Source of the DNA: a virus
Taxonomy: Duplodnaviria > Caudoviricetes
Length of the DNA stretch: 58,004 nt
IMG/VR virus record: IMGVR_UViG_3300043636_000005
Span: 1-58,004 of that record
Reading direction: 5' to 3' (one strand)
Position numbers and translations under genes: made by a program. Each line of letters starts with the position of its first letter. Positions within the stretch are counted from its first letter, which is position 1. Below, in pieces: positions 1 through 37,613 of this stretch. The notes beneath the pieces are model-generated. The model made no database searches. It was not told the DNA's origin and worked only from the letters and a program-made list of their open reading frames with translations.

Positions 1-127
1 GGGACGGTGTACGCCATGGCCTAGACGATCACGTCCGAGGCTTCGCCGGCGGCCAGGGTCTCGGGCTCGCCAGCGGCCTGTTCGGCGGTCTGGGCGGCGG
101 CTTGCTCGGCCAGCTCGGCGGCGTCGG
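1..127. repeat. Terminal direct repeat (circular assembly overlap), copy 1
   Basis: 1-127 is identical to 57878-58004 and falls inside contiguous genes. 127 bp is a typical assembler k-mer overlap. Confidence 0.95.
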
Positions 128-611
128 CCTGGGCGGCGATGCGGCGGTCATTGGCCTTCAGCGCATCGAAGGTCTCGACGGCCTTGGCGACCAGCTTGTC
201 GTGACCGGTCTTCGGATGGAAGGCCACGCCCGCATCGGTCAGGTAGGAGCGCAGGGCGGCGGCTTCCATCTTGTCGAAGTCCGGCCGCGCATCGAGCGGC
301 TCGTGCAGCTCGGCCGGTTCTTCGAAGCCGCCTTCCAGCGCCTCGCGGGCGATCCGTTCATTGACGGTCTCGGGGGTGACGATGGAGGCCGCCAGTTCGT
401 CGGTCGGACGCTTGGGGTTGATCACCACGCCATGGCGGGCCTCGGCGATGACGAAGTGCGGCGAATGGATCTTCAGCGCGTTGATTTCCAGGTCGCTGAC
501 GTCCAGCGCCGGCGAAGTCTCGTCAGGCTTGATGTAGTGGGTGAGGCCGCCCACGAGGTTGACGCCGCGCGGGCCGGTCTTGTCCTTATTGGTGATGTAG
601 TACAGCGCCAT
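21..611 (-). CDS. Head-module protein with HeH/LEM-like motif and C-terminal SDVIV tag
   Basis: Lies between capsid and head-tail adaptor genes. DKMEAAALRSYLTDAGVAFHPKTGHDKLV resembles HeH/LEM motifs. Confidence 0.6.
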   Translation of the reverse strand: MALYYITNKDKTGPRGVNLVGGLTHYIKPDETSPALDVSDLEINALKIHSPHFVIAEARHGVVINPKRPTDELAASIVTPETVNERIAREALEGGFEEPAELHEPLDARPDFDKMEAAALRSYLTDAGVAFHPKTGHDKLVAKAVETFDALKANDRRIAAQADAAELAEQAAAQTAEQAAGEPETLAAGEASDVIV

Positions 612-665
612 GATATCGCCTTCCGAGGGTTGGGTGAGCGGACTTCAACGCTGTAGCTACCACGG

Positions 666-694
666 AAAAGGGCCCCGGATCACTCCAGGGCCCT
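666..694 (-). terminator. Rho-independent terminator after the major capsid gene
   Basis: Minus strand AGGGCCCTGGA-gtga-TCCGGGGCCCT followed by TTT. Confidence 0.7.
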
Positions 695-725
695 CGTCTA
701 TGTCGCACGTCTGTGGGTGTCGGGC

Positions 726-1664
726 TTAGAACCCGTCGCGATAGCTGATGGTCTTCGGCAAGCGGACTTCCGTCCCGCCCAGGTTCATGAGGCCGACGAC
801 TTCCCAGCTCATCGAATTGACCTGATAGGGGGCGAGGAACTCGTGGTCGCCGGGCAGGTAGAATTGCACGGCTTCCGGCGAAGCGCTGAACGCCACCATC
901 CGGCGCGTCCCGCCCGAACCGGCGGTCTCCAGGTCGCGCAGACCGCGGATCACCAGCGGTTGGCCGGTCTCCAGCGTATAGGCGTTGTTTTCGCGAACGA
1001 ACTTCAGGAGGGTGTCGGAGGTCGACCCCATCCGCTTGCCGGCCATGCCTTGAATGGCGGTGGTCGGCAGGAGCAGGCGGTTGGCGATCTCCGTCTGATT
1101 GGTGTTGTTGGTCACGTCGTAAAGCGCGGTGTTGATGTCCGCCAGGGTCTCGTCGGCGGTCTTCAGCGGCCAGGAGACCCCCGAGGCGCCGGCGGCGACG
1201 TTGGCGGTGGGAATGCCCGCGGTGTTGATCAGGCCGCTCCAGCCCTTCTCGGCGTGGCCCGAAATGGCGATGTTGTACTGGAAGGCCTGGGCGATCTTGG
1301 AGGCCGCCAGGGCCTTGCTGGCGGGCAGGTTGGTGCCCATCCGCTCGGCGCGCTTCAGCTCTTGCAGCGACCATTCATAGCCGATGGCGGCCAGATGGTT
1401 TTCCCGCAGGAACTGGGTCTGGCTGACGTCGGCCATCGGCACGTCATTGCCGCGACCGGAGATGAACTCGGCCTTACCAGCGATATCGCCGCTGTAGAAG
1501 ACCGAACCCATCTCCCACATGTCGCCTTCGGTGTTGACCGGCAGGATGGCGGCGTAATCGAACGCCGGATACTTCGTCTGATAGACGGTGTTTTCGATGC
1601 GATATTGCATCGGGGTCAAGAAGCCGAGCGCCTGTTGGGCGTCCGCGAAGTTAATCTCACGCAT
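726..1664 (-). CDS. Major capsid protein (DUF2184 family)
   Basis: 312 aa with AIGYEWSLQEL, GWSGLIN and GGTEVRLPKTISYRDG motifs. Follows the decoration and DUF2213 genes. Confidence 0.9.
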   Translation of the reverse strand: MREINFADAQQALGFLTPMQYRIENTVYQTKYPAFDYAAILPVNTEGDMWEMGSVFYSGDIAGKAEFISGRGNDVPMADVSQTQFLRENHLAAIGYEWSLQELKRAERMGTNLPASKALAASKIAQAFQYNIAISGHAEKGWSGLINTAGIPTANVAAGASGVSWPLKTADETLADINTALYDVTNNTNQTEIANRLLLPTTAIQGMAGKRMGSTSDTLLKFVRENNAYTLETGQPLVIRGLRDLETAGSGGTRRMVAFSASPEAVQFYLPGDHEFLAPYQVNSMSWEVVGLMNLGGTEVRLPKTISYRDGF

Positions 1665-1714
1665 CGTTTTGGCCTTTCAAGGCGCTAGAGGCTGAAGGGG
1701 TGAAGGGCGCCCGG

Positions 1715-2194
1715 TTAGGCTTGGTCGTCCTGGCGGATGCGGATGCGGACGAGACCCGCGGCGGTGATGGTGTCTTCGTAGCGGGCCGGCAGGATGAAGT
1801 TCACCCCCGAGGCGCTGACGTTGGTCAGCAGGCCGGCCGGCGTCACATAGACCTGATCGCCATCGGCCACCGCCACCGACGCCGCCACCCAGATGCAACC
1901 TTCGTCCAGCAGCGGGGCGGATGAATATTGCTTGTGCAGGTCGGTCGACGGCGAGGCCGGGGTGGCCTGGACGTCGTGGCGCACGATGGTGAAGCCCATG
2001 AAGGCGTTCAGCGCCGGGGTGGCGGTGCAGCCGCGGTCGCCCGCGCCGCGAAACGCCGGCTTGCCAAAGCCGATGCCGGCGGCGTCTTCCACCGTGCGGG
2101 AGAGCACGTTGCGATTGCGGGTGTCGGCGATCATGCCGGCGAAACCCGAGGGAATGGACGTGGTGTAGGTGGACTGAACGGTGTTGAGGGTCAT
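1715..2194 (-). CDS. Head decoration/cement protein
   Basis: 159 aa immediately upstream of the capsid gene. GFAGMIAD, IGFGKPAFRG and GCIWV...VADGDQVYV pattern. Confidence 0.75.
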   Translation of the reverse strand: MTLNTVQSTYTTSIPSGFAGMIADTRNRNVLSRTVEDAAGIGFGKPAFRGAGDRGCTATPALNAFMGFTIVRHDVQATPASPSTDLHKQYSSAPLLDEGCIWVAASVAVADGDQVYVTPAGLLTNVSASGVNFILPARYEDTITAAGLVRIRIRQDDQA

Positions 2195-2232
2195 GGGACC
2201 TTAATCTCCAGGGAGTTGCAGGGGGCCGAGGC

Positions 2233-3390: not shown

Positions 3391-3511
3391 GGCGAGAACT
3401 ACCCCTTGAGGTCTGTCCTGTGTGTGCCACACGATCTTGCGCCATGCCACCGCTTGGCTTTGCGACGGATGCGCCCGCCGCGAAGGGCGGTTGATATCTC
3501 GCCCTCAACGC

Positions 3512-3829
3512 GAAACGCCCCCAGGCGTGAACCGGGGGGCGTCTCCGGCCCGCCGGGGGCCGATACGGCGGAACTCTCATCCGCTTGCGCCGACAGGGTC
3601 TCACAAACCCGCCGGGGCTAGGGGCTTTCCACCCCTCTTGCAGGCTCGGGCCCATCCGCGGGACGACCGATATCCAGCGACCCCAGTTGCCGAGCGTGCG
3701 TTAGGCCACACCCCGGCAAAGGAACCGCCACCTGTCCGGCCTGGGTCGTCACCCTGGCTCGTGGCGCCCTTCGCATTCTGCGTCGGGCCCCCTGGAGCTT
3801 ATGGCCGAAGCCGCCCCCAGGGCGAAGCC
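3512..3829 (-). ncRNA. Candidate structured non-coding RNA
   Basis: No credible ORF. Many nested helices with UUCG, GAAA, GCAA and GUGA loops, an upstream TTGACG promoter and a downstream GC hairpin. Confidence 0.5.
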
Positions 3830-3859
3830 GTGATATCACCGCGTCCGGCTCGGCGTCAA
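3830..3859 (-). promoter_or_regulatory. sigma70-like promoter with GTGATATCAC at the -10 position
   Basis: Minus strand TTGACG-N14-GTGATATCAC. Confidence 0.6.
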
Positions 3860-4011
3860 GCGGCGTGCTGGCCGTGGCCGGTGGCGTCCTCGATCTCCAC
3901 GAAGCCGGGGGCTTGGCCGCCTTCGATGGTGTCGTTCCCCGGCGCCGGGTTGACGATCTCTTCGGCCGGGGCCTTCTCGGGCGCGTCGGCCGGGGGCTTG
4001 GGGTCGCTCAT
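3856..4011 (-). CDS. Small acidic hypothetical protein (51 aa)
   Basis: ATG overlaps the portal stop (TAATG). MSDPKPPADAPEKAPAEEIV...GHGQHAA. Not in the supplied ORF track. Confidence 0.55.
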   Translation of the reverse strand: MSDPKPPADAPEKAPAEEIVNPAPGNDTIEGGQAPGFVEIEDATGHGQHAA

Positions 4012-6014
4012 TAGACGATCTCCTCGAAAACTTCAGGGGCGAACAGGAAGCGCCCAACGTAGGGTTTGAGTTTCATCACGTCGAGTTCGTCGCTCTTGCG
4101 GAACGAGACGTGCGGCCGGTACTCGCGATGCGACGGGACCGCGCCGGCCTCGACAATCTGGTCGTAGCGCCATTGCAGTTCGGACGAGTTGAACTCTTGC
4201 ACGTCGCTGTCGCCGAGCTGTTCCACCACCCTCGGGCCGCCGGGCGGGATCAGCAGCCGGCCGTTGTCGGTGCGCGACCAGTCGGCCGGGACCTTCATCC
4301 AGTCGACCGGGATCAGCGAATACATCACGGTCACATGCAGGTCGCCGGCCGCCATGAGGTCCTCCACGCCCTGGCCGCGCCAATGGTTGAGGAACTCTTG
4401 CGGGTTGAGCAGCTTGCGCGAGACGTAGAGCGAGCGCGGGGTGGCGTCGCGCACCTCATCCAGGCTGATCGTCCGCAGGGTCAGGACCTCGTCGCCTACG
4501 GTGACCGTCCGCAGGCCGGTGATAGCTTCGGCGTCCAGCGCCGCCAGACCGTCCTTGGCGGCCTTCTGTGCGCCCCGGCGGGTGGCCCTGGCCGCAGACT
4601 GTCCTGGCTTGGACGGGGAAGCCCCCAGCGTCGGGGTGGCGGCCTTGGCGGTGGCCACGAGCGTGGCGTTCTTGGCCATCTCCACCGCCGGGAGCGGCGA
4701 GGTGCTGGCCGAGACGTTGTCGGCGAGGCCTGGGAAGGTCGCGCGCTCGTTCAGTTCGGACACCAGGGTCTTGGCGAGGGCGTCGTGCTGGATGAGCCCG
4801 GTGGTGGCGAGGATGTTGTAGGTGTCGGCGGTCAGGTTATCGAGTTCGGCCTGTTCCTGCGGCGTGGTCTCGGCCAGCGGGTTGAAGCTGAACGAGGCCT
4901 TGACGTCCTTCACGCCGGCCGAGGGCAACAGATAGGCGTCCATCCGCTCCAGTCGTCGGCGCAGTTCGGTGTCCTGGCGGCCCTTGACCATGGCCAGGAA
5001 GTTCTTCTCGTCGTGCTCGCCGGTGGCGTTCATGCCCTTAGGCGGCGCGCCCACGAGGCGGGTCAAGGGCATGTCGGCGGCGCCGGCGACCATCTGCAGA
5101 AAGGTCATGATCAGGTCCGGAAGGCCGCCGAAGCTCAGTTGCCGGGTTTCCCATTTCTCGCCGCTGCCCTCTGTGCCGTCGCCGCTGTCCAGGGTCACGG
5201 CGCGGAACTGCGAGCGCATCAGCTTGGCGACCTGGAGCCGCTTGGCCAAGTCCTTCTCGCCCTTGGCCGTGGACACCATGGAGGTCAGGCCGGGAATGCC
5301 GATGATATCAACCAGGGCCTCGGGGATCATCGCCGCCACCCCGCCCATGGCGGTCTCGGCGTCCATGATGGCGCTGTTGATCGCCTCCAGCTTCGGCAGA
5401 CCCCAGACCACGTCTTGCGCCAGCGTGCCGGTGCTGAGCTTAGTCGCCGGGACGCCGGGGAAGATCAGCACCCGCGAGGGGTGGACGTCCTGTTGGGTCC
5501 GGCCGGCGGCGGTGAGCTGGAACATCGTCGGCAAGCCGAAGCCCTCGGATTGCAAATCGCTGTCGAGTTCGTTGAAGGTCAGGTGATCGCGGGTGGTGAC
5601 ATAGAGGTACTTCAGGCCGCGCGGGCCGACCGTAGGCGGCGCCGGGGTGGCGGCGTCGCCATCGAGCCCCATGATGATCGCCGCCCCGCCCCGCAGCGCG
5701 CCCAGGCGCAACGCCTCATGGAACACCTCGCGGACGTTCAGCCGCTTCTCCTCGTCGCCGATGGCGTCGGCTTCCTTGCCCTCCAGGTTCCAGGCCCGCC
5801 AGTTCTTGGTCATCTCGGCAGGGATGACGTCGTGGATTTTGCGGACCAGCCAGGAGGACCGATAGGCGCTGTCGATCTCCACCGCGCTGAGTTGGCGCCC
5901 GGCGATGCTCCACCCGGAATAGGATCGCTTGTCGCGCTCCGTCCCCTGGCCGGTGACGACGTTCGCGAGCCCGTCTGTCGGGTTCACGGTGCGGGGGGAT
6001 GCGTCGTCGGCCAT
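4011..6014 (-). CDS. Portal protein (DUF1073 type) fused to a C-terminal 2H phosphoesterase (Acb1-like)
   Basis: AYRSSWLVRKIHDVIP and AGAADMPLTRLVGAPPKGMNATGEHD portal motifs. The last ~140 aa carry HVT (4329-4337) and HVS (4104-4112). Confidence 0.85.
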   Translation of the reverse strand: MADDASPRTVNPTDGLANVVTGQGTERDKRSYSGWSIAGRQLSAVEIDSAYRSSWLVRKIHDVIPAEMTKNWRAWNLEGKEADAIGDEEKRLNVREVFHEALRLGALRGGAAIIMGLDGDAATPAPPTVGPRGLKYLYVTTRDHLTFNELDSDLQSEGFGLPTMFQLTAAGRTQQDVHPSRVLIFPGVPATKLSTGTLAQDVVWGLPKLEAINSAIMDAETAMGGVAAMIPEALVDIIGIPGLTSMVSTAKGEKDLAKRLQVAKLMRSQFRAVTLDSGDGTEGSGEKWETRQLSFGGLPDLIMTFLQMVAGAADMPLTRLVGAPPKGMNATGEHDEKNFLAMVKGRQDTELRRRLERMDAYLLPSAGVKDVKASFSFNPLAETTPQEQAELDNLTADTYNILATTGLIQHDALAKTLVSELNERATFPGLADNVSASTSPLPAVEMAKNATLVATAKAATPTLGASPSKPGQSAARATRRGAQKAAKDGLAALDAEAITGLRTVTVGDEVLTLRTISLDEVRDATPRSLYVSRKLLNPQEFLNHWRGQGVEDLMAAGDLHVTVMYSLIPVDWMKVPADWSRTDNGRLLIPPGGPRVVEQLGDSDVQEFNSSELQWRYDQIVEAGAVPSHREYRPHVSFRKSDELDVMKLKPYVGRFLFAPEVFEEIV

Positions 6015-6192
6015 GCGGAGGCTCCACAGCAAAGGTGGGGCCATAGTTAGCCGATATCAGGGGGAGGCGGAACGCGGCGCGGGGCGCTCGGGCGTTCGAA
6101 AGGGTGGGCGACCGGCTTGGAGAGGGCACTCCAGCCGGTCGCCCGAGTTTGCTGTGGTGGTGGGGACGCCCAGACTGGGCCCTAGTTGGCTA

Positions 6193-7132: not shown

Positions 7133-7133
7133 G

Positions 7134-7394: not shown

Positions 7395-7608
7395 AGCGCA
7401 CCCGTCAGGCGATGCGGAAGGCCACGAAGATCAGCAGCGCGAGCGTGAGGTAGACCACCGCGACCGACAGCGTCGCCATGCGAACGGCCTCGGGCCGGTG
7501 GTGCGGTCGGCGATGGAAGGTGGCTTGCATGGGGCTGGCGCGGGCTCCGTCCTCCCGCACTAGAAGCGAATTCGGTCATAACTGTGTTCCCTGGCGGTGA
7601 TGGCTGAC

Positions 7609-7908: not shown

Positions 7909-8020
7909 CGTCTCGTCTCCATGACGTGGGCCGGTGGCCCGATGAGGGGTCGGGGGCGGCGCTGACGGGGTGTTATGGACCCCTCAGACTTCCGCGGGCT
8001 GAACCGTCGCCCCCGACGTC

Positions 8021-12726: not shown

Positions 12727-12730
12727 GCGC

Positions 12731-16413: not shown

Positions 16414-16617
16414 GTGCAAGTCCTGATCTTCCCCACCCAAGACCCCGAGGCCCGCAAGGCCGCCGGCGCCCTCCTGGCCAGCCTGGGCAACAGCCCCGAG
16501 CATGAAGCCCGGTTCGCCGCCCGCATGGAGCGCGAGCGCGCCGAGCTGGCCGCCACCGCCCACCTGTCGGGCGTTGAGCGCCTGGGCGCCCTCCTGGCCC
16601 TGCGGGGGCTGTCGTGA
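16414..16617 (+). CDS. Hypothetical protein
   Basis: GTG start with GGAG RBS. First of a small plus-strand operon. Confidence 0.5.
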   Translation: MQVLIFPTQDPEARKAAGALLASLGNSPEHEARFAARMERERAELAATAHLSGVERLGALLALRGLS

Positions 16618-16718
16618 TGCGGCGGCTCTGGAGCGCCCTGGCCAGGGCGCTGCGCAGCTACCTTGCCGATGTCTTCGCGCCGACCACCGATGACGAACAT
16701 TGGGACGGGATCGTCTGA
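16617..16718 (+). CDS. 33-aa peptide ending DDEHWDGIV
   Basis: TGATG-coupled at both ends. MRRLWSALARALRSYLADVFAPTTDDEHWDGIV. Confidence 0.45.
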   Translation: MRRLWSALARALRSYLADVFAPTTDDEHWDGIV

Positions 16719-16986: not shown

Positions 16987-17219
16987 GCGACGGACATTGG
17001 GTCGGCTTGCCGCCCGGCGTGACCGCGCGCCGCATCGGCGACGAATGGGTGTTCGAAGGGGCCCCCGAGGCGCCGGGGTGCTACTCGCCGCGCTATGTCG
17101 AGACGGTCGCCGTGCAGCGGGGACGCCTGCCGGCGTTCACCATCACGCTCGCCGATCCCGCACCGACGCCGCCGGGGTTCAACCGCCGGGCCCGGCGCGC
17201 GCGGTGTTCGCGCCGCTAA
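16983..17219 (+). CDS. Hypothetical protein
   Basis: ATGA coupling. NRRARRAR C-terminus. Confidence 0.45.
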   Translation: MSDGHWVGLPPGVTARRIGDEWVFEGAPEAPGCYSPRYVETVAVQRGRLPAFTITLADPAPTPPGFNRRARRARCSRR

Positions 17220-19877: not shown

Positions 19878-20034
19878 GGCCCTTGCCTTTCTTCGTGCGG
19901 CGCTCGTGGGCCGCCCTGGCGACCGCGGCGAACCGCGGGCCGTGGGTGTTGGCCGTGAGCGCCTGGGCGGTGTCCAGCGCCGCCAGCTTGGCCCGCTCGG
20001 CGGTCTCGTCAGCGATCGCGCGGCGCGACGACAT
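19870..20034 (-). CDS. Hypothetical protein
   Basis: TGATG-coupled to the upstream gene. Confidence 0.5.
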   Translation of the reverse strand: MSSRRAIADETAERAKLAALDTAQALTANTHGPRFAAVARAAHERRTKKGKGHG

Positions 20035-20459
20035 CAGACAATCACCTCGTCGTCGTCCTTGACCGCCGGCGCCGGGGGTTTCTTGCCCGGCTTCGGCTTG
20101 GCCTCGTGGCGCTTGCCGATCGACAGCTTGTCCAGCCGGGAGCCCGGCGCGGACGTGGCCGGGGTCAGCGGCGCGCCGATCTTGGAGGCGATGGAGACCG
20201 GTTCGGCGTCGAGCTGCGCCAGCATGGCCGCGCGGGTCTCGTCGGTCAGGTCGCCCCAGGCCATCGCCGCGAGGATGAAGCCGTGGTTCCGACTGCCGAT
20301 CTTCTCGCGCGCCACGCGGGCGTCCAGGGCGTCCAAGATCGCCTTGGGGATGCGCTGGGCGAGCGGGACCTTGGTCATATCGAACCGCTGACCCGTGAAG
20401 GCAACGGCGGGCTTCGCCGACTTGGTGGGCTTGGCCTTGGGGGTGGGTTTCTTTGCCAT
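20034..20459 (-). CDS. Putative ribbon-helix-helix regulator with C-terminal DDDEVIV
   Basis: VPLAQRIPKAILDALDARVAREKIGSRNHGFILAAM resembles the CopG/Arc fold. Lys/Pro-rich arms. Confidence 0.55.
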   Translation of the reverse strand: MAKKPTPKAKPTKSAKPAVAFTGQRFDMTKVPLAQRIPKAILDALDARVAREKIGSRNHGFILAAMAWGDLTDETRAAMLAQLDAEPVSIASKIGAPLTPATSAPGSRLDKLSIGKRHEAKPKPGKKPPAPAVKDDDEVIV

Positions 20460-29329: not shown

Positions 29330-29454
29330 GTCGGGGGCTCCGGGGTTCTCCCCCGTGTATCACCCGAACGGTCCCGCTTTCCAATGGGCCAGGACCGCGC
29401 GCCCGTCCTACATGTGGAGGTCTCGCCCCCGCGCCCCGCAACCGGTTGTGTCGA

Positions 29455-30246
29455 TCAGACGATGACCTCGTCATCCAGGTCGACAGCCGGCGGCGCCGGG
29501 CGATTGATCGGAACCCCGGCCGAGCGGGCCGCGTCGGTCGAACGCCGCAGGGTCTCGGCGACCTGTTGGGGCGTGCCATGATGGGGCTTGATCGACCCCG
29601 CCGGCATGGCCTTCAGGCCGCTGCCCAGCCCGACCACCCGGCCATCCTCGGTCATGTAGCCGGCCGCCACCATCTCCGCCCGCGTCATCCGCTTGATGGG
29701 CTCGGCAGGCTTGGGCGGGCCCCACTCGGCGGCCCGCTTGCAGCGCCAGCGCATCGACGCCAGGGCGACCTTGGCCTTGACGCACCCGTCATAGAGCTGC
29801 GCCGGCCGGGGGTAGAAGCTCCGCGCCATGGCGTCGGTCACCACCTCGCCGCGGTCCCAGGCCAGAAACCCAGCCTCGATGATATCAGCCGAAAACTCGG
29901 TCAGCAGCGCCAGATAGGGCGCGGCCATCAACGCCCAGGCCTCGGGGCTCTTGTCCTGAAAGTCCAGCCCGTACGCCGGCCCCTTGGCGGCCATGACGAT
30001 CAGGATATCCTGCGGCGTCGCGTGGCCGGACAAGGCCGCCTCCAGCGCCGGGAGCGCGGAAGCGGCCTCCTCCTTCAGCTTCGGGGCCCGCGCAATCTGG
30101 GCGATGATCTGGCCGTTCTCACGCTGCCCCACGGCTCCGCTGGGCTCGGTCAGCAGCGAGTGCAAAGCCGGCGACGAGGTTAGACGTCCGTCGATCAGCG
30201 CTGGCGGCGCGTGCGTCCCCGCGAGGGTCAGTTGCTGGCGATCCAC
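29455..30246 (-). CDS. Replication accessory protein (possible helicase loader) with C-terminal DDEVIV
   Basis: Follows the initiator. YLALL...SFYPRPAQL pattern. Start uncertain. Confidence 0.5.
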   Translation of the reverse strand: MDRQQLTLAGTHAPPALIDGRLTSSPALHSLLTEPSGAVGQRENGQIIAQIARAPKLKEEAASALPALEAALSGHATPQDILIVMAAKGPAYGLDFQDKSPEAWALMAAPYLALLTEFSADIIEAGFLAWDRGEVVTDAMARSFYPRPAQLYDGCVKAKVALASMRWRCKRAAEWGPPKPAEPIKRMTRAEMVAAGYMTEDGRVVGLGSGLKAMPAGSIKPHHGTPQQVAETLRRSTDAARSAGVPINRPAPPAVDLDDEVIV

Positions 30247-31012
30247 TCTGGCGCTCCCGGTGGTAGAAGCCCTCGTGAAGCTTCGTGAACGAGGACTGTT
30301 GCAGGAAAAAGTCAAAGGTCGGCGAGAAGTTCGCACCCGTCTTCCCGGTGAGGAACGCCGACGTTTCCGCTGATATCATGATATCACGCCACGCGTCAAA
30401 CCCGCCAGCATCCCGAACCCGGAGCGGGATGGCTTTCCGCCGACTATCGTTGAGGATCTTAAGCGCCCCCCAGTGCGGCCAGCGATCGGCGATATCACGA
30501 TAGACCGCCGCGCACTTTTCGACCAAGGGCCGGTCGTCGGTCGCCCGCGCTAACTCCTTCAATCCATCTAAATCTATAGGTAGCTCTATAGGTACGGCGG
30601 AACGTGGAGTGAGGGGTTTATGTCTTTCGGTTCCGGCGTTTGTTTGGCGTTCCGGGGTTTCTTCGTCTCCGCGTTCCGGGGATTTTCGCGGCCTTCCGCG
30701 CCTTCCAGCCTCCAGATCCTCGTCATCGTCAGGGTCCATCTTGACCATGAATTCGGCCGGTATTTCCAATCGAATGATATCGCTGAACCCCGGCCTCGAT
30801 TTGGTGGTGATCAAGCCCAGGCCTTCCAGAGCGGCGATAGCTGATCGAACGTGACGCTCTGTCCGGTGGATCATCTTGGCGACCCATCTGGCCGAATGCC
30901 TGACCTCCCGAGGTCTGGCGAGGTCAGCCAGCGCCAGCAACACGAGCAGATGGTTGCCGTTCTCGACACGCTCGGTTTGGCCCCAAGCCCAAGCGGTGGC
31001 TTTGAAGCTCAT
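30119..31012 (-). CDS. Replication initiator (N-terminal wHTH)
   Basis: MSFKATAWAW...LVLLALADLA...TERHVRSAIAALEGLGLI, with C-terminal FLTGK...TFDFFL...KLHEGFY. Confidence 0.8.
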   Translation of the reverse strand: MSFKATAWAWGQTERVENGNHLLVLLALADLARPREVRHSARWVAKMIHRTERHVRSAIAALEGLGLITTKSRPGFSDIIRLEIPAEFMVKMDPDDDEDLEAGRRGRPRKSPERGDEETPERQTNAGTERHKPLTPRSAVPIELPIDLDGLKELARATDDRPLVEKCAAVYRDIADRWPHWGALKILNDSRRKAIPLRVRDAGGFDAWRDIMISAETSAFLTGKTGANFSPTFDFFLQQSSFTKLHEGFYHRERQSGSPATDPRGDARAASADRRTSNLVAGFALAADRAQRSRGAA

Positions 31013-31332
31013 GTGTAACCTACTTCTGACATGTAGCTGTAAAGGCGGTCCCTAACGATCTCTTCGGCGACGTTAACACCGCATCGAAACCACTCGTCGG
31101 TGGGGCCAGACCCTGGCGCCCGATACATTCTCAGGCGCTCATGAGAACGTTGCTCAACCCGGAAGGACATGGGGCGAGGATAGAACAGGGTCCAATAAGA
31201 GACGCGAAGGCTGCGGTTGGACTGTGCGCTAAGGACCTTGCAGCGGGTTGTGGGGTCCTGAGAGATGCCGATTTTTATCAGCTTTGGGTCATCCAGGTCC
31301 GAAAGGACGTAGATCCGCGCGCTCTGGCTCAT
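31009..31332 (-). CDS. GIY-YIG (T5orf172-like) protein
   Basis: IYVL...IKIGISQDPTTR...VEQRSH...EWF. Confidence 0.8.
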   Translation of the reverse strand: MSQSARIYVLSDLDDPKLIKIGISQDPTTRCKVLSAQSNRSLRVSYWTLFYPRPMSFRVEQRSHERLRMYRAPGSGPTDEWFRCGVNVAEEIVRDRLYSYMSEVGYT

Positions 31333-31946
31333 GCGATCCCCTGGGCGAGAAGCTTCTTATATTCGCGCAGCCCGTGCATGACCGACGTGTGGTCCATCGG
31401 GAGTGGGCGGCCGAAGCGGACCAGGGACGCCCCGATCATCGGCAGGCTGTAGCGGCGCGAACCATCGGCGCGGCGAACCTCGCGGGCGATGGTGAAATAT
31501 TCCCAGCGGGCGCGCGAGAGCGGCCGGGTGCGGATGTCGAGGGCGACTTGCGAGGGGCGCAGGCCGCGGCGCCAACAGACCTCGCGGAACATGCCCTTGA
31601 GGTCGGTGCCGAAGACCGGCGCGCCCAACGGTAGCTCCCAGGGCTCGTCTTCGATCAGCTCTGGCGGGTGATTGTGGTTGCGCGGCGCCGGGGCGTGCGG
31701 CCGGGCCGGCGCCTGTCCGAAATCGACGTCGCCGAATAACAAAAGAGGTGGTGGGGCGTTTGAAACCATCCCCAGCGTGTCGCCGGGCTGGAGTGGTACG
31801 AGTGATGGCGCGCGGCTATGTTGGGCCGTGAGCATTGGCCGATCCTTTCCGAGAGGAGGCTGATGTTGCGGGCGCGGGTCGGGAAACCCGCGTCCGCCGT
31901 CACTGTGCATCTGATCAATTGACGCATCAAGGTTAAGCCGCCGCAT
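31329..31946 (-). CDS. Protein with DnaA domain IV-like HTH
   Basis: RTRPLSRAR...YSLPMIG...DHTSVMHG matches the DnaA C-terminal signature. True start is probably downstream of 31946. Confidence 0.7.
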   Translation of the reverse strand: MRRLNLDASIDQMHSDGGRGFPDPRPQHQPPLGKDRPMLTAQHSRAPSLVPLQPGDTLGMVSNAPPPLLLFGDVDFGQAPARPHAPAPRNHNHPPELIEDEPWELPLGAPVFGTDLKGMFREVCWRRGLRPSQVALDIRTRPLSRARWEYFTIAREVRRADGSRRYSLPMIGASLVRFGRPLPMDHTSVMHGLREYKKLLAQGIA

Positions 31947-32089
31947 TTTTGCCCCATGAGCGCCAATGTCGCGGCTGGGTTGCGGATCGCGCCGGAAGCT
32001 GACACCTAAAGGGCGTGGGTTGCTGGCGTTCGTCCTCGCGGACGCCGAGCCTGGGGCGGCCCGTTCTGGCGTTCGGGTCGCCCCCTCCC

Positions 32090-32281
32090 CTACCGCTCCG
32101 CCGCCCGCAGCACGCCCGCGAAGAACGCCCGGTTCAGGTCGGGATCAATCGGCCGGAACGGCTTATATTCCTCCCGACAGGCCTCGCAGTAGGGCGCCCG
32201 CAGCGCCGCTTGGCCGCAGAGCCTAAAATCCTTCTCGCCCATCGTGCCCTTCGGCCATTGGCAAATCCCCTGAATTCTCAA
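32090..32281 (-). CDS. GcrA C-terminal-domain-like protein
   Basis: CQWPKG...DFRLCG...PYCEAC resembles the GcrA pattern CxWPxG...FCG...PYCxxH. Confidence 0.65.
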   Translation of the reverse strand: MRIQGICQWPKGTMGEKDFRLCGQAALRAPYCEACREEYKPFRPIDPDLNRAFFAGVLRAAER

Positions 32282-32826
32282 AGCAACAGGCCCCCCAGCC
32301 TTGCGAGCCAGGGGGCGGCGGCCGATCCGTCAACCTCACTGAGCCCGATCATCCAGACGCCCACCGCGTCGGCGGCGTCCTCTCGCCCCTCATCCTTGGT
32401 TGTGGGCAAGGGAATGCCTAAACCCATCGCTGCACGAACGACCTGCGACTTTGTGGCCTGATGGTCGCCGGTCATGACCTTTTTCACCCGCCGCAAGTCG
32501 ACCTCGGCCACCCGCACGCCGAAGCGGACGCAGGTCAGCTCCAGCACCACGCCCAGGCCATAGATGCGGCGCAGGTCGGCCAGGGTGTCGGATCTCCCGC
32601 CATGGCGGCCCTTGGTCACCAGAATGGGCGCCTCATAGGCCACGAGGTCGGGCTGATGCTCGCGGATCAGCGCGCCGGCCTGATCCTGCATATGCGCCGC
32701 CAGGGCGCCGAGGTCGTCGCCGAGCGGCGGAAACCTCCAGGCGCCGGCGGTGGGCACGCCCTGGCCATCGCCAACGCAGTATCCCGACGAGCCGGGGGCG
32801 AGGTCGAAGGCCAGGACGCACGCCAT
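32278..32826 (-). CDS. RuvC-like Holliday junction resolvase
   Basis: VLAFDLA, VAYE, KKVMTG...ATKSQV and DAADAVGV catalytic motifs. Confidence 0.85.
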   Translation of the reverse strand: MACVLAFDLAPGSSGYCVGDGQGVPTAGAWRFPPLGDDLGALAAHMQDQAGALIREHQPDLVAYEAPILVTKGRHGGRSDTLADLRRIYGLGVVLELTCVRFGVRVAEVDLRRVKKVMTGDHQATKSQVVRAAMGLGIPLPTTKDEGREDAADAVGVWMIGLSEVDGSAAAPWLARLGGLLL

Positions 32827-33797
32827 TAGACGATGACGTCCGGGTCGGCTTCCTTGGCCGCCTGGACCGCGGCGCGGGTGGTTTGCGCCGCCAGTTCCTC
32901 GGGGGTGGCTTCGAAGCCGTCGCTGGCCGGGTTGTCGGCTGCGAAGTCCGCTGCCGCCTGGAGCTTGGTGATGGCGGTCAGGATGTGCGGCGGGGCGGTC
33001 CCGCCCTCGGCGACGATCTGGTCGCGCTTGGCGATCAGGCCTTCAAGGGTCGGCTGGCCGTCTTCGCCCAGGCCGATTTTCGCCAGGGCTTCCTTGCCGA
33101 TTTTCTCCTCGCGCTTCTCGCGCACCCGGCGCTCCACCTCGGTCTCCTCGGGCTCAACCGGGGCGGCCACCGGCGCCTTGGTCTTGGTCATCGCCAGGGC
33201 GAGGATTTTCTGGCCGTTGGTCCACCCGGTCTCATAGCGGTTTCCGTGCCCGGCCTTGACGCACTCCAGCGGCGCATCCTTGTCCGCGCCGCTGACGCCG
33301 TCCGTGTAGCCGACGCCTTCCCAATACTGGCCGTCCTGTTCCACCGGCGGGAGGCGGTGGTGCAGCTCCAATTCCTCCTGGGAGATATCACCCACCGGCA
33401 GGCCCATGGCGCGGCGGAAGCGGGCGCGCACGGCTTCGTTGTGCTGGACGTTGCGTCGCTCGGAGGGCGAGCTGTCCTTGACGAGGTCCATGATGCGGCC
33501 GCGTTCGAACTCTTTCGACTGCGCCTTCGCGGACAGCAGAATGGAGTTGACCTTGTCCTGGGCGGCCTTCAGCACCACCCGCGCGGCCTCAACCTCGGGG
33601 AGCGCCTGTTTGACCCTGGCCACCACGCTCATGAGCTGGATAGTCTCGGCCTCCTCGCGAGCCTTCTTTTCGGCGAACGCGGCCTTGAGCTTGTCTTCGG
33701 GGCTCATGTTGTCGACCACGGTCAGGGTCCGGCCGTTGCCGCCCTTGCCCGCGCCCTTGGCGCCACGGGCGCCGCCTCCGGTGATCTTCCCGGCCAT
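32826..33797 (-). CDS. Hypothetical helical protein with C-terminal DPDVIV
   Basis: ATG with GAGGA RBS. Weak GapR-like helix and an RMF-like GYxDG...YxxGWxxG motif. Confidence 0.6.
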   Translation of the reverse strand: MAGKITGGGARGAKGAGKGGNGRTLTVVDNMSPEDKLKAAFAEKKAREEAETIQLMSVVARVKQALPEVEAARVVLKAAQDKVNSILLSAKAQSKEFERGRIMDLVKDSSPSERRNVQHNEAVRARFRRAMGLPVGDISQEELELHHRLPPVEQDGQYWEGVGYTDGVSGADKDAPLECVKAGHGNRYETGWTNGQKILALAMTKTKAPVAAPVEPEETEVERRVREKREEKIGKEALAKIGLGEDGQPTLEGLIAKRDQIVAEGGTAPPHILTAITKLQAAADFAADNPASDGFEATPEELAAQTTRAAVQAAKEADPDVIV

Positions 33798-33895
33798 GCT
33801 GTGTCTCTGTCCTCGTGATTGGCGTTCCGCCCGTGATATCGCCGAGCGTTGAGCCACCCTGTCCCCGCGCGTGCTTCGGGACAAGTCGAGAGGGC

Positions 33896-33935
33896 TTGCG
33901 ACGCGATATCACTTGGGGATAGGGTGTGATATCAC
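33896..33935 (+). promoter_or_regulatory. Divergent promoter region with palindromes
   Basis: TTGCGA-(18 bp containing GCGATATCAC)-TAGGGT-GTGATATCAC, plus another near copy at ~33833. Confidence 0.6.
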
Positions 33936-33973
33936 GCGAGCCGAACGCCAGTCAGGCCGCCCAGAGGGACATC

Positions 33974-35341
33974 ATGCGCATCATCGAATTTTCGGCGGAG
34001 AATTTCGCCAAGCTCAAGGTCGTGACGATCCGGCCAGATAAGGGGCTCGTGGTCCTGTCTGGGCGAAATCGTCAGGGCAAGAGCAGTGCGCTGAACGCCA
34101 TCTCCACCGCCTTGCAAGGCCTGTCCGCCGCGCCGGCTGAGCCGATCCACGAGGGTTGCGAGCGCTCGCGGGTCCGCTTGGAGCTGGGCGGCGAAGAGGT
34201 GGAGATGATCGTCACGCGGACGTTCACCGTCGACCCCGAGGAGCCGCGCGGCTGGACGTCGAGCTTCGATGTCCGCACCGGCGCCGGGGCCAAGGTGAAG
34301 TCGCCGCAAGACGCCTTGAACGCCATCCTTGGCAAGATCGCTTTCGATCCGCTGTCGTTCAGCCGGGCCGACGACGACGACAAGCTGAAGATGCTGCGGC
34401 CGCTCGTGCCCGAGGTCGACTTTGACGCCGAGAAGGCCGCCCGCGCCAAGGATTACGACGCCCGCACCTTGGTCAACGCCGAGGCCAAGCGTCTGCGCAG
34501 TCAGGCCGAGGCGGTCATTCTCCCGCCGGGCCCGGTCCCCGCCCGCATCGCCTTCCAAGAGCTGGAGGACGAGTTGGCCGGCGCGGCGCAGTTCAACGCC
34601 GAGATTGAGACCCGCAAAGCCAACCGGTCGGCGGCGCGGGCGCAGGCCGAGCAGCTCACCGCCGAGGTCTTGGAGCTTCGGGACCGGCTGGCCTATGCCG
34701 AGGAAAAGTTGGCGACCATTGAAGCCAAACTCGCCACCGCCGAACCGCTCGCCGAGCCCAAGGACATTCTAGCCATCCGCGCCAGACTGACCGAAGCCCG
34801 CACCAAGAACGAGGTGGCGGACAAGGCCGCCCGCAAGATCGCGCTCGCCACCGAAGCCGCAGCGGCGGAAACTAAGGCGCTCGCCCTGACCAAGGCGATT
34901 GAAGCCCGCGACGCGGCCAACGCGGCGGCGGTGGCCAAGGCGGTCGACCGCGTGCCCGGCCTGACCTTCGCCGCCGGCCGGCTGATGCTCAACGGCCACG
35001 CCTTCTCGATGGCGTCCGACGCTGAGCAGTTGGAAGCCGCGGTGGCGGTGGCGGGCTTGCTGAACCCGACCTTGCGGGTGGTCCGCATCCGCGACGGGTC
35101 GTTGCTGGACGAGGACGCCATGGCGGCGCTGGAGCGGATCGCCGAGCGCCTGGATTTGCAGGTTTGGCTAGAAGTCGTCTCCAACACTGGCGACGTCGGC
35201 TTCGTGCTGGAAGACGGCGAGCTGAAGGGGCCGGGAACCAAGCCGGCGCCGCGGCCCAACTTCAGGGCCGACCTCGCCATGGCCCATATGGCCGCTCGCC
35301 TTCCCGCTTCCACTGATCCCGACGACGAGGTGATAGTTTGA
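33974..35341 (+). CDS. SMC/SbcC-like ATPase with C-terminal DDEVIV
   Basis: ENFAKL, GRNRQGKSS Walker A, coiled coil, ASDAEQ signature and RIRDGSLLD. Confidence 0.85.
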   Translation: MRIIEFSAENFAKLKVVTIRPDKGLVVLSGRNRQGKSSALNAISTALQGLSAAPAEPIHEGCERSRVRLELGGEEVEMIVTRTFTVDPEEPRGWTSSFDVRTGAGAKVKSPQDALNAILGKIAFDPLSFSRADDDDKLKMLRPLVPEVDFDAEKAARAKDYDARTLVNAEAKRLRSQAEAVILPPGPVPARIAFQELEDELAGAAQFNAEIETRKANRSAARAQAEQLTAEVLELRDRLAYAEEKLATIEAKLATAEPLAEPKDILAIRARLTEARTKNEVADKAARKIALATEAAAAETKALALTKAIEARDAANAAAVAKAVDRVPGLTFAAGRLMLNGHAFSMASDAEQLEAAVAVAGLLNPTLRVVRIRDGSLLDEDAMAALERIAERLDLQVWLEVVSNTGDVGFVLEDGELKGPGTKPAPRPNFRADLAMAHMAARLPASTDPDDEVIV

Positions 35342-35958
35342 TCCTGGCTTTCGACACCGAAACCACCGGCCTCCCTGATTGGGGCGCGCCGTCTGACGCC
35401 AAGCATCAGCCGCACCTCGTGCAACTGGCGATGATCCTTCTCGATGACGATCTGACCGAACGCGCCAGCGTGTCGCTTATCGTGCGCCCAGACGGCTGGG
35501 TGATCCCCGATGATGTCGCGAAAATTCATGGGATTACGACGGAGATGGCCGAGCGCCTGGGTGTGCCCGAGAAGGTCGCGACCGCACTCTATGCGCAACT
35601 GCTCTACGGGACCGGCGCCACGGTGGTGGCTCACAACGTCAAGTTTGACCTGCGCATCATGCGGATCGCCATGCTCCGCGCCGGCTGGGCGAAGGACAAA
35701 CTGGACGCGCGAAAGCCCGACAGCTTTTGCACGCTAAACGCTGCTACGCCGCTCGTGAACCTGCCGCCGACGCCGAAGATGGTCGCCGCCGGGTTCAAAA
35801 AGCCGAAGCCCCCGAAGCTCTCGGAGTGCATCGAGTTTTTCTTTCAGGAGACCTTGGTGGGAGCGCACGACGCGCTCGTGGACGTGCGGGCTTGCCTGCG
35901 GGTCTATCGCCACATTGTGCAACTCTCCGCCGCTCCAGATGACGAGGTGATCGTTTGA
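35338..35958 (+). CDS. DEDDh 3'-5' exonuclease with C-terminal DDEVIV
   Basis: FDTETTG, AHNVKFD and HDALVD motifs. Confidence 0.9.
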   Translation: MILAFDTETTGLPDWGAPSDAKHQPHLVQLAMILLDDDLTERASVSLIVRPDGWVIPDDVAKIHGITTEMAERLGVPEKVATALYAQLLYGTGATVVAHNVKFDLRIMRIAMLRAGWAKDKLDARKPDSFCTLNAATPLVNLPPTPKMVAAGFKKPKPPKLSECIEFFFQETLVGAHDALVDVRACLRVYRHIVQLSAAPDDEVIV

Positions 35959-36206
35959 GCCTGCCCCCGATCTATTCCGCCGAAGACGCGACCGCGCCGG
36001 CGCATCTGCGCGCCGTGGCTTGGATGTCGCAGGATGGGCCCGGCAAGCACTGGACCTGCGCCGCGCCCAGCCAGGAGGAGGCGCGGGCCAAGCTCTCGGC
36101 CTTCTGGCTGAAGTGCGAGGCCGCGAAGCCGGCGCGGCCGCCGCCCCGCAAAAAGGCCGCATTGTCGGGCTCTCCAGAGCTTGACGACGACGAGGTGATT
36201 GTCTGA
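35955..36206 (+). CDS. Hypothetical protein with C-terminal DDDEVIV
   Basis: TTGA-coupled start. Confidence 0.6.
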   Translation: MSLPPIYSAEDATAPAHLRAVAWMSQDGPGKHWTCAAPSQEEARAKLSAFWLKCEAAKPARPPPRKKAALSGSPELDDDEVIV

Positions 36207-36487
36207 TGCCGGTTGCGCCCTACCTTCCGACCGAACGTCTCCGCATCGCGCGGCCGGACGGCCTGGGCGAGGCCTGGGCGGAGTTTCGCGTGTGGCCGGG
36301 CCTCCTCTGCGTCGAGGACGACAACCCGGCCCACGCGCCTGCGGTGTTCGTGGACCGCATCGTGTTGGACGACGGCGCGCCGGTGCCGATGACCGCCGCC
36401 GTGCGCGAGGCCCTGCGCTGGGCGATCCAGGCCAGCGACCCGCGTTTCGACGTCATCCCCGCTTGGGTGATATCGCCGCCCAATTAG
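36206..36487 (+). CDS. Hypothetical protein
   Basis: TGATG-coupled start. Confidence 0.55.
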   Translation: MPVAPYLPTERLRIARPDGLGEAWAEFRVWPGLLCVEDDNPAHAPAVFVDRIVLDDGAPVPMTAAVREALRWAIQASDPRFDVIPAWVISPPN

Positions 36488-36520
36488 CGCTTGCGTGATA
36501 TCACGCATTGCGGCCATATG
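36467..36520 (+). promoter_or_regulatory. Promoter for recE-recT with palindromes
   Basis: GTGATATCGC, then TTGCGT overlapping GTGATATCAC, 18 bp, then CATATG. Confidence 0.55.
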
Positions 36521-36557
36521 GGCCTCGCCGGACGCCAGCCGGTTTCGAGGACCACAC

Positions 36558-37613
36558 ATGAGCGATATCATTCCGGCGCCGGTCGATTTGCGCCGTCTCG
36601 TCACCGCCTGGAAGGGCGAGAAGATCGCCCGGCCGGGCATTTATTCGAATGTCCCCATGGGGGTCTATCACGACGACCTCTGTATCGGCCCGAGCGTCAG
36701 CCACTCGACGCTGTGGCGCCTGGACAGCAAGAGCCCGCGCCACGCATGGCGGGAGTGGTACGGCAACCCGAACCGCAAAGAGCCCGAGGAAAAGCCCCAC
36801 CTCGCGCTCGGCCGGGCGATCCACCACCTTGCGGGCGGCGAGGCCCAGTTCGCCAAACACTTCTGCGTCCGGCCGGCGAAATGGGATAGCTGGCGGACCA
36901 AGGAAGCCAAGGAATGGCGCGCTGAGCAAATGCGGCTCGGCATGGGCGTTCTGACCGCCGAGGACATCGACACCATCCAGGGCGTCGCCGACAGCCTGAA
37001 CGAGCACCCGACCATCCAGGCCGGCATTCTGAAGGGGCTGGTCGAGATGACGGTGGTCTATCAGGACCCCGTGACCGGACTTTGGGTGAAGGCGCGCCCC
37101 GACGTCATCCCGCTGTCGTCGGCGATGATCCCCGACCTGAAGACCATCGCCGAGGCGACCCGCAAAAAGTGCGAAACCGCCATCGGTGAATATGGCTACT
37201 TCGGGCAGATGGCGATCATTGACGAGGCGCTGTGGCAGGTCGCGGGCTTCGAAGCCACGGACCATGTTCTGGTCTTCATCGAGAAGTCTGACCCGTGGTG
37301 CATCAACCTCAAGCCGCTGCCGTCGTGCGATATCGAGTGGGGCCGCGCCTACGCCCGCCGCGCGCTCGACAAGTTCGCCGCCTGTCTGGAAAGCGGCGAT
37401 TGGCACGGGTACGACGACGACGAACGCGAAGGCGGGATGCCGGCGTGGAAGCGCGCCCAATTCGCCTATGAGGCGGAGAACGGGATGCTCCCGAAGCTCC
37501 GCGACCGCCAGCCGCGCGACGCCACGCTGAAAGCCATGGCCGCCCGCGCTTCCACCACCGCCAAAGCCCTCGCCGCGCCGTCCCTGGATGACGCTGACGA
37601 GGTCATCGTTTAA
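36558..37613 (+). CDS. RecE/exonuclease VIII-like PD-(D/E)XK nuclease with C-terminal DADEVIV
   Basis: GIYSNV...YH, LGRAIH, KARPD, DLKT and YGYFGQMA motifs. Confidence 0.85.
   Translation: MSDIIPAPVDLRRLVTAWKGEKIARPGIYSNVPMGVYHDDLCIGPSVSHSTLWRLDSKSPRHAWREWYGNPNRKEPEEKPHLALGRAIHHLAGGEAQFAKHFCVRPAKWDSWRTKEAKEWRAEQMRLGMGVLTAEDIDTIQGVADSLNEHPTIQAGILKGLVEMTVVYQDPVTGLWVKARPDVIPLSSAMIPDLKTIAEATRKKCETAIGEYGYFGQMAIIDEALWQVAGFEATDHVLVFIEKSDPWCINLKPLPSCDIEWGRAYARRALDKFAACLESGDWHGYDDDEREGGMPAWKRAQFAYEAENGMLPKLRDRQPRDATLKAMAARASTTAKALAAPSLDDADEVIV

Follow-up and report, generated by a model that had tools for sequence, protein, structure and literature searches.

Docking tips at protein C-termini, such as the C-terminus of SSB, clamp-binding motifs and PCNA-interacting protein (PIP) boxes, structure the DNA metabolism of cells and of a few model phages; they form the tail of one protein or are common to two or three. 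Phage T7 gp2.5 and gp4 both have acidic C-terminal tails that end in Phe and bind the polymerase. In a study on phage T4, gp55, gp33 and gp43 are described as having interchangeable "hydrophobic and acidic" C-terminal epitopes, preceded by divergent linkers, that bind the gp45 clamp (PMC2988020). Two further reports describe recognition of the last 7 SSB residues by RecT and Red-beta (10.1101/2020.04.14.041095) and RecT-type annealases as readers of the SSB tip (ETfinder, PMC13490951). Here we analyze a short C-terminal tail, in its most common form Asp-Glu-Val-Ile-Val (DEVIV) directly before the stop codon, in the genome of a tailed phage. This genome, referred to below as the window, is a complete IMG/VR virus record of 58,004 bp with direct terminal repeats. 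A tenth of its proteome bears a single tag, whose sequence follows the genome rather than the gene. Three related genomes were compared at the DNA level: G001, a complete 52-kb IMG/VR phage; G002, the record that also appears among our loci as L007; and G003c31, a 25.8-kb contig of a Phenylobacterium metagenome-assembled genome (MAG). The window, G001 and G002 are the three complete tag-bearing genomes.

The T4 clamp-binding epitopes are the closest precedent. They are likewise (PMC2988020) short acidic-hydrophobic C-termini behind a divergent linker, common to unrelated proteins of one phage. Unlike the T4 epitopes, the tail studied here is found on 8-11 proteins per genome rather than 3, spans 4-5 residues and comes in lineage-specific variants. 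The T7 tails resemble it in that two unrelated replication proteins have an acidic tail with a hydrophobic last residue, and differ in being long acidic stretches on two proteins. A DNA polymerase did not turn up among the window proteins scanned with Pfam (30 of the 82 called; 37 of the 82 were scanned with PHROGs), no dedicated polymerase search having been made.

The tail also shares with the SSB tip (D-D-D/E-I-P-F) an acidic run, a hydrophobic end, a free carboxylate and a disordered linker. Judging from its sequence relatives, the window phage probably infects an alphaproteobacterium of the Caulobacterales, because its nearest cultured phages are Caulobacter phage Sansa and Erythrobacter phage R6L (~37% identity, ATPase) and one relative, G003c31, sits in a Phenylobacterium MAG. 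Sansa and R6L have an SSB ending D[DE]IPF and no common tag. The SSB of the Phenylobacterium MAG ends DLDDEIPF, compared with D[LP]DDEVIV in the window. The original prediction had proposed that the tag mimics the SSB C-terminus, and the resemblance to this tip of the likely host clade is in keeping with that, but the Ile-Pro-Phe end is missing: the window tails end VIV, without Pro-Phe. Some relatives do end in Phe (ETF, EAF, EVF), again without Pro. Where one SSB serves many partners, here many proteins have one tail, and its bearers are not OB-fold (oligonucleotide/oligosaccharide-binding) SSBs. SSB itself (PF00436) was not found in the window at E <= 1, in line with the original prediction's remark that no SSB gene is evident, nor in G001 or G002.

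Non-SSB proteins of 76-526 aa with [DE][IVLM]PF tips are encoded at loci L012, L022, L045, L049, L053, L056, L079 and L125/L126. One of them is an SMC-like ATPase homolog (L079, 6891-8471); others are small and encoded directly upstream of RecE-like genes. These proteins may be SSB-tip mimics.

The tail in the window

We called 82 genes in the window with our own codon-likelihood caller. The starts of these home-made calls are uncertain; the tails depend on frame and stop only. Ten of the 82 genes end in Ile-Val-stop, six with DEVIV, two with DVIV, one with EEIV and one with DGIV, and all ten ends (the EEIV one in full FEEIV) read as first described. About 0.3 such genes are expected from the internal IV frequency (63/17,244; binomial P = 7e-13). 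DEVIV occurs six times in the proteome, each time at a C-terminus, and 8 of the 11 occurrences of VIV are C-terminal. At the DNA level, the 18-nt tail consensus with up to 3 mismatches was found at 6 places and the reversed-pattern control at none. Low-complexity linkers rich in Ala and Pro stand before the tails, consistent with the flexible linker that had been claimed, and an acidic run adjoins the end on this linker (D[LP]DDEVIV, KDDDEVIV, DDADEVIV).

The recombination module encodes an SMC/SbcC-like ATPase, a DEDDh exonuclease, a RecE-like PD-(D/E)XK nuclease, a RecT-like annealase and a RuvC-like resolvase. The ATPase (AAA_23, phrog_1499; 33926..35341, plus strand) ends DPDDEVIV (tag codons 35324-35338), and its gene end, GTT TGA, overlaps the TTG start of the next gene. 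Next in order are the genes for the DEDDh (RNase_T/DnaQ-like) exonuclease (35338..35958, plus strand), with the tail APDDEVIV (35941-35955), and for an 83-aa protein of no known family (35955..36206, plus strand), with the tail LDDDEVIV (36189-36203). The RecE-like exonuclease (DUF3799, phrog_412) is encoded at 36558..37613 on the plus strand, in an open reading frame (ORF) open from 36495, and ends DDADEVIV (37596-37610). Its tag is written GAG GTC ATC GTT TAA, and the gene is uncoupled, the next gene starting 28 nt on with its own AGGAG. The 615-aa RecT-like annealase (37642-39489, plus strand) and the RuvC-like resolvase (32278-32826, minus strand) are untagged. Upstream of the resolvase gene, a 323-aa all-helical protein (32826..33797, minus strand) ends DPDVIV (32829-32840), encoded GAC GTC ATC GTC. 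An acidic linker and the conserved motif FEATPEELAAQ are further features of this protein.

Outside this cluster, a 141-aa protein (20034..20459, minus strand) ends KDDDEVIV, with tag codons at 20037-20051 and the stop at 20034-20036; it has no match in Pfam or PHROGs. A 236-aa protein, likewise of no known family (29455..30165, minus strand; ORF open to 30336), ends DLDDEVIV (29458-29472), encoded GAG GTC ATC GTC, and is uncoupled, with the next start 125 nt off. The names first given to these two, "RHH-like regulator" and "replication accessory protein", are not supported by Pfam or PHROGs. A 196-aa protein (21..611, minus strand), encoded immediately downstream of the major head protein gene, ends EASDVIV (24-35). 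The tag marks proteins that are unrelated and belong for the most part to DNA metabolism, in agreement with the original prediction. Those with an assignable function, the RecE-like nuclease, the SMC-like ATPase and the DEDDh exonuclease, are all predicted to act on DNA.

Two ends that had been put forward as weaker variants are probably not members. The portal-Acb1 fusion (4011..6044, minus strand) ends FEEIV, which falls inside the Acb1 domain match (residues 538-676 of 677; Pfam E = 2.8e-19), and the portal ortholog of G001, of similar length (653 aa), ends ETIQEA without the tag; membership of the portal is doubted for these reasons. The 34-aa ORF ending DGIV (16614..16718, plus strand) is doubtful both as a gene, with a coding score of 9 against a threshold of 8, and as a member. 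The domain fused to the C-terminus of the window portal is Acb1, which acts against the cyclic-oligonucleotide-based antiphage signalling system (CBASS).

Tails co-vary by genome across unrelated families

G001 and G003c31 were found via the 323-aa family. In G001, 11 of 76 genes end E[AF][IV] (P = 5e-17); in G003c31, 7 of 37 end [DE][VI]V, mostly G-D-V-V (P = 1e-12); and in G002, 4 of 98 are tagged; these patterns were chosen after inspection and the P values are descriptive. Orthologs carry the tail of the genome in which they reside, across unrelated families. The 236-aa family ends DEVIV in the window, EVEEAI in G001, EVGDVV in G003c31 and NEAEAI in G002. For the 323-aa family the corresponding ends are DVIV, EAV, GDVV and EAV (in full, the orthologs end DGAEAV, REDEAV and EGGDVV). 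The ATPase has DEVIV in the window, DGEEAI in G001 and EIGDVV in G003c31, with none listed for G002. Besides the DEVIV of the window, the RecE-like nuclease ends EEAI in G001, the DEDDh exonuclease PVGDVV in G003c31, and the 77-aa ortholog of the 83-aa protein DVGDIV, also in G003c31. As far as the last helix, 178 aa of the two exonucleases align with 72% identity; beyond it the sequences read ...SAAPDDEVIV in the window and ...KVEPVGDVV in G003c31. A DNA methyltransferase is tagged in both G001 and G003c31 (RAEAV, RRLEVV). In both the window and G001, the gene that comes next after that of the major head protein encodes a tagged protein; in G001 this positional counterpart of gene 21-611 has 227 aa, ends DTGEAV and has a short motif in common with it (pairwise E = 1e-4).

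The RuvC-like resolvase is present in all four tag-bearing genomes with a conserved GGLL-type end of its own (LGGLLL, GRGGLL, KGWLL or RGGLI). This end differs from the tag and makes a second C-terminal motif that is conserved.

Database homologs were also examined. The nearest relatives, proteins from Logan assemblies, are 65-69% identical and of the DEVIL type. The 236-aa homologs P0202 and P0203 end DEVIL. Among the closest 20 homologs, an acidic-aliphatic tail is found in 18 for the RecE-like nuclease, 16 for the ATPase and 17 for the 323-aa protein, the internal frequency of this pattern being 2.1%. In the 323-aa family 48 of 92 representatives end [DE]-x-[VILF]. The linker varies in length and sequence with the terminus conserved (alignments A2 and A5), and in the RecE-like alignment (A2) the terminal Glu is invariant.

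We took database proteins with an equal recorded longest-contig size to come from one contig. On this basis two tails of DEVIL were found on each of the contigs of 56,673 and 13,339 nt, DEEAV, DEEAV and GEAV on that of 57,753 nt, DGEAI, DGEAI and NEAV on that of 18,448 nt, and EEEAV twice on that of 5,020 nt. The contigs of 30,922 and 56,528 nt both have EETV with AETV, and that of 3,379 nt has QETF with AETF. With the window excluded, the last 3 residues are identical in 12 of 17 same-contig pairs from different families, compared with 12.7% of 822 different-contig pairs, and 0 of 20,000 shuffles reached 12, the related phages not being independent samples.

A megablast of positions 29000-38000 against GenBank phages gave no match, and the ATPase alone found no relative in IMG/VR. 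Searches with the RecE-like alignment gave 64 + 11 IMG/VR loci, 80 metagenome loci and 1 GTDB locus, all at <=48% identity, and most of these loci have no multi-gene tag.

The tail thus exists, is under selection at the peptide level and co-varies by genome across unrelated families. The tag put forward in the original prediction is real, but it is not unique to the window phage, being one variant of a clade-wide, genome-specific code that takes the forms DEVIV, DEVIL, EEAV, EEAI, ETV, ETF and GDVV.

Coding of the tail and Shine-Dalgarno sites

The sequence GAC GAG GTG ATC GTC TGA contains GAGGTGATC, which we take to be the complement of the 16S rRNA 3' end. The tail might therefore be the mere translation of a Shine-Dalgarno (SD) site, spacer and stop/start cassette (GAGGTGATnGTnTGATG) reused at gene junctions. 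Several observations favor such an origin at the expense of a peptide tag. In four tails, GAGGTGAT(C) is complementary to the 16S 3' end over 8-9 perfect nt, and the DNA-level contribution is therefore real. At the 20034 gene, for example, GAGGTGAT is an 8-nt anti-SD match and the stop codon shares bases with the ATG of the gene that follows (TGATG). Eight of the ten tagged genes are tightly coupled to the next: seven, plus gene 21-611, for which the ATG of gene 57502-57894 comes 4 nt after the stop across the terminal repeat. At the coupled junctions the next start lies within 4 nt, in the form of TGATG, TAATG, TTGA or an ATG at +4. The codon GTG is used in four of the four coupled DEVIV genes and GTC in both uncoupled ones, and GTT is chosen where a TTG start overlaps the stop. 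Finally, DNA-level cassettes do make common tails in relatives (EKKD, GGE and Ala-Ala).

As the sole cause, however, a by-product of coupling is largely refuted, and we regard it as improbable. Two DEVIV genes (29455 and 37613) are uncoupled and their GAG GTC breaks the SD site, and the DVIV end at 32826 has no SD likeness at all. Complementarity to 16S rRNA, as expected of an embedded SD site, is thus found for four DEVIV genes but not for 29455, 37613, 32826 or six of the seven tagged G003c31 genes. The six DEVIV sites differ at third codon positions only, with 0 non-synonymous differences, and use GTG or GTC, ATT, ATC or ATA, GTC or GTT and the stops TGA, TAA and TAG, a variation already pointed out in the original prediction. 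The Asp at -5 is always GAC, though AAG would lengthen the SD site. No SD site extends to the final Val or to the acidic run at -6 to -8, and the long conserved linkers are without an SD rationale. The position of the motif is tied to the stop codon, while the next start is at -4, -1 or +4, or there is none. Coupled junctions without a tag number 22. Of the 12 occurrences of GAGGTGAT in the window, 4 are at tails and the other 8 are not before starts. The ordinary SD sites of the window phage are GGAG, 6-8 nt upstream of the start.

The relatives settle the matter for the peptide, with evidence at both the protein and the DNA level. In G003c31, six of the seven tagged genes are uncoupled and one is coupled, 0 are SD-like, and GGCGACGTCGTC does not resemble an SD site. 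Its tags show synonymous variation at every codon (GGC GAC GTC GTC, GGC GAC GTA GTT, GGC GAT ATC GTT, GGG GAC GTT GTG and others). G001 uses GAA and GAG, GCG, GCC and GCT, and ATC, ATT and ATA for its tag, and tagging and coupling are not associated there (P = 0.34). Had the tail been a DNA element, orthologs should have kept its nucleotides; instead they keep the peptide type, not GAGGTGAT, the GD[VI]V of G003c31 being written GGC GAC GTC GTC or with synonymous codons. Across families the last residue (V, L, I, F) changes in concert, a behavior that a spacer would not show.

As with other embedded SD sites, GAG GTG AT base-pairs with the 3' end of 16S rRNA in four genes whose stop codon overlaps the following start. 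Unlike embedded sites of this kind, the tail is found in uncoupled genes, has non-SD variants, varies only synonymously and co-varies across families, none of which such sites explain. We read the coding as dual: the peptide comes first, and its codons have been adjusted to act as an SD site as well if another gene begins immediately behind. The claim that conservation is at the peptide level holds in that variation is synonymous only and there is no DNA repeat, but it needs the qualification that GAG GTG AT doubles as an 8-9 nt SD site in four coupled genes.

Functionless concerted evolution, in which recombination or gene conversion homogenizes the junctions, is hardly plausible. The tails do lie at gene boundaries, where mosaic phage genomes recombine. 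Yet the copies differ synonymously in the window, G001 and G003c31, so there is no homogenization of the DNA; 15 bp with mismatches would be a poor substrate; and the tails persist while the protein bodies have diverged to 40-70% identity. A DNA repeat or mobile element was rejected, as copies differ at synonymous sites, and so was a frameshift or readthrough fusion of the ATPase with the exonuclease, for which there was no evidence.

Common tails of other kinds were seen among the relatives. Three small genes on the minus strand of G002 (59605-60754) have the end EKKD, and the DNA that follows their stop codons is identical (AGAAGGACTAGCCCCG; CCCCG). This is clearly a pure DNA-level SD cassette that yields a common peptide tail, and it served as a negative control. 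Gene ends in GGE at L084 are likewise a DNA-level cassette. In 31 distant RecE-containing loci (e.g. L059, L038, L056 and L100), 317 of 1,055 genes end Ala-Ala. These ends are enriched at GCATGA/GCGTGA (ATGA/GTGA) overlaps (odds ratio 2.9), and 91 are uncoupled; they may be a second genome-wide C-terminal signature or a coupling artefact. Common C-terminal peptides in compact genomes may therefore be SD artefacts, and a tag can be told from them by uncoupled genes, synonymous-only variation, non-SD variants and covariation across families.

A docking tag and its candidate reader

The tail is very probably a selected peptide motif, and the probability that all its bearers dock through it to one common reader we put at about 0.55. 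As a docking tag it would be a short linear motif, made of an acidic patch, two or three aliphatic residues and a free carboxylate and tethered on a disordered Ala/Pro-rich linker, that marks about a tenth of the phage proteins for this reader. Like the SSB tip or the T4 epitopes, it could serve as a tool-belt address by which enzymes are brought together on the DNA of the phage or on intermediates of recombination, and in the four tightly coupled DEVIV genes GAG GTG AT would also be the SD site of the next gene. Because the tail is uniform within a genome and differs between genomes, the reader would have to co-evolve with it and would most likely be phage-encoded. That there is a single reader, that the phage encodes it and which protein it may be, we infer.

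Some of the evidence pulls the other way. Uniformity within a genome is imperfect: the five mismatched same-contig pairs all involve the 323-aa family, which often differs in the last residue (EAV beside EAI, GEIV beside DEVIL, ETV beside EVF). The database proteins were assigned to contigs by size only, and the phages are related. A host reader that differs between host genera is possible. Nor did a familiar hub appear, for PDZ_2 (PF13180), DnaN-N (PF00712), gp45-type DNA_PPF (PF02916) and SSB (PF00436) were not found in the three complete tag-bearing genomes; PF13180 was the PDZ model used for the phage genomes, and a very divergent clamp could escape the cut-off of E <= 1 set for PF02916 and PF00712. 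In this the genomes differ from T4 with its gp45. By the PDZ ligand rules, VIV fits class II (Phi-x-Phi-COOH) and EAV, EAI and ETV fit class III ([DE]-x-Phi-COOH). The bacterial beta-clamp motif (QL[SD]LF) was rejected, none of the ten tails having a Gln or an L-x-L/F pattern.

Only RuvC and the RecT-like annealase are both conserved and untagged in all four genomes compared at the DNA level. The annealase consists of a RecT-like domain at the N-terminus, a disordered acidic region in the middle and a helical C-terminal domain (~496-615), and the predicted fold is confident for the last ~120 residues. G001, G002 and G003c31 all conserve its C-terminal module, without a tag, and G003c31 keeps only this module (residues ~380-610). 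The module is our best candidate for the reader of the tag, though a doubtful one. The C-terminal domain had no PDB fold match at E <= 0.001 and is also found in relatives without multi-gene tagging (L074 and L110), both of which count against it. A predicted complex of the full RecT-like protein (A4) with the last 40 residues of the RecE-like nuclease (A2) scored 0.01, a value obtained without controls that speaks neither for nor against binding. The resemblance of the module to 14-3-3 and TPR-like helical repeats was weak and not significant and was not used.

The predicted fold of the 323-aa protein is all-helical, with a mean predicted local distance difference test (pLDDT) score of 83. 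It had no PDB match at E <= 0.001, a weak RMF-like segment being the only hint; in Pfam, weak GapR-like and RMF matches were obtained for 4 of 53 family members each, below reliable levels. The ESM Atlas search gave sub-threshold matches only. Ten small early proteins matched nothing in Pfam or PHROGs except one PHROG of no known function.

Non-polar C-termini with a free carboxylate are classical degrons, as in the LAA of ssrA and its AAV, ASV and LVA variants, and ends of this kind feed AAA+ proteases. The tail might thus send early, DNA-acting proteins to ClpXP, ClpAP, Lon, FtsH or a phage adaptor for timed removal. The tagged nucleases could do harm late in infection, no docking partner was found, the RecE-like nucleases of distant loci have ssrA-like ends (AAEANDNxxxxxEAA), and nearly a third of the genes at those loci end Ala-Ala. 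We nevertheless consider a degron unlikely. Host AAA+ proteases are conserved and a degenerate degron would drift protein by protein, yet the tails are near-uniform per genome and switch together. A structural-module protein and DNA methylases are tagged too, and most of the Ala-Ala ends lie at stop/start overlaps. Like the ssrA-type ClpX C-motif-1, the tail has a non-polar C-terminal tripeptide with a free carboxylate on otherwise unrelated proteins. It differs in that VIV, though non-polar, is not the Ala-Ala found in distant relatives, no window tail ends Ala-Ala, the variation is genome-specific, and the residues beside the end are acidic, which ClpX C-motif-1 disfavors.

The acidic C-terminal tails of SSB, T7 gp2.5 and T4 gp32 act in cis on the DNA-binding surface of their own protein. 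With these as precedents, and since all assignable tagged proteins bind DNA, each tail could be autoregulatory, a DNA mimic or "rheostat" on its own surface without a common reader. A portable C-terminal loop that tunes exonuclease activity is described for Che9c RecE, of the same DUF3799 family, in a 2026 preprint (10.64898/2026.10.29.762211). That functional extension, a loop of ~55 residues particular to one subfamily, acts in cis on a single enzyme, unlike a pentapeptide on many. Regulation in cis is quite unlikely for the present tail, as unrelated folds need not have the same last three residues nor change them in step. The conserved part, moreover, is only the 4-5 end residues with a hydrophobic terminus, more like the ligand of a pocket than a charge mimic.

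A signal for localization or packaging, into the capsid, a phage compartment or a condensate, by which the proteins would accompany the phage DNA or be concentrated on it, is very improbable. The fusion of Acb1 to the portal implies that the phage ships enzymes in its particle, and the tagged protein encoded right after the major head protein gene, in the window and in G001, would fit such a signal. However, the early recombination module contains most of the tagged genes, the G001 portal is untagged, and we know of no capsid-targeting signal that is a C-terminal pentapeptide.

The window has a G+C content of 63-69%. Pfam and PHROGs identified the terminase large subunit (17216-18925), and also the head protease, the major head protein and tail genes. 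A 2,427-aa protein (22046-29329, minus strand) with glycoside hydrolase 16, FAD-dependent oxidoreductase-like and immunoglobulin-like matches is probably a giant tail or injection protein. The palindrome TGATATCA occurs in 28 copies, compared with 0.11 expected, at sites that include 11198/11228, 12997/13024, 15726/15759, 16348/16379, 20467/20502, 30371/30379, 33927, 37618 and 39487. The copies are mostly intergenic, often paired 25-35 bp apart and close to gene starts or ends, and TGATATCA is probably an operator or promoter element for a phage regulator. No confident gene was called in the ~1.2 kb from 30166 to 31328, which holds three copies of TGATATCA. Around it lies the lowest G+C in the genome (0.626, 30001-32000), and the stretch may be a regulatory region or origin.

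The principle of a C-terminal docking tip is already known. What is new is that as many as 8-11 proteins are tagged in each genome, that the code is specific to the genome, that orthologs are re-addressed and that no hub is recognizable. In the Creative Commons-licensed part of PMC and in bioRxiv, with subscription journals and supplements beyond reach, we found no account of phages in which several proteins carry a genome-specific C-terminal tag. We tentatively suggest a phage-private addressing code: a phage clade, probably of Caulobacterales, without its own SSB or clamp may tag ~10-15% of its proteome, from nucleases and an ATPase to methylases and DNA-binding proteins, with 4-5 C-terminal residues for a co-evolving phage reader, tag and reader having shifted together in each lineage. 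Such a code would keep the DNA-processing tool-belt orthogonal to the host SSB interactome, to co-infecting phages and to satellites. Horizontally gained genes could be re-addressed by replacing the tail, as may have happened to the 72% identical exonuclease with each phage's own tail. If this is true, dozens of hypothetical phage proteins would be placed in one functional network from sequence alone. Co-evolving readers would offer natural orthogonal peptide-receptor pairs for synthetic recruitment and portable recombineering, and the clade would be a tractable system for the joint change in specificity of a hub and its many ligands.

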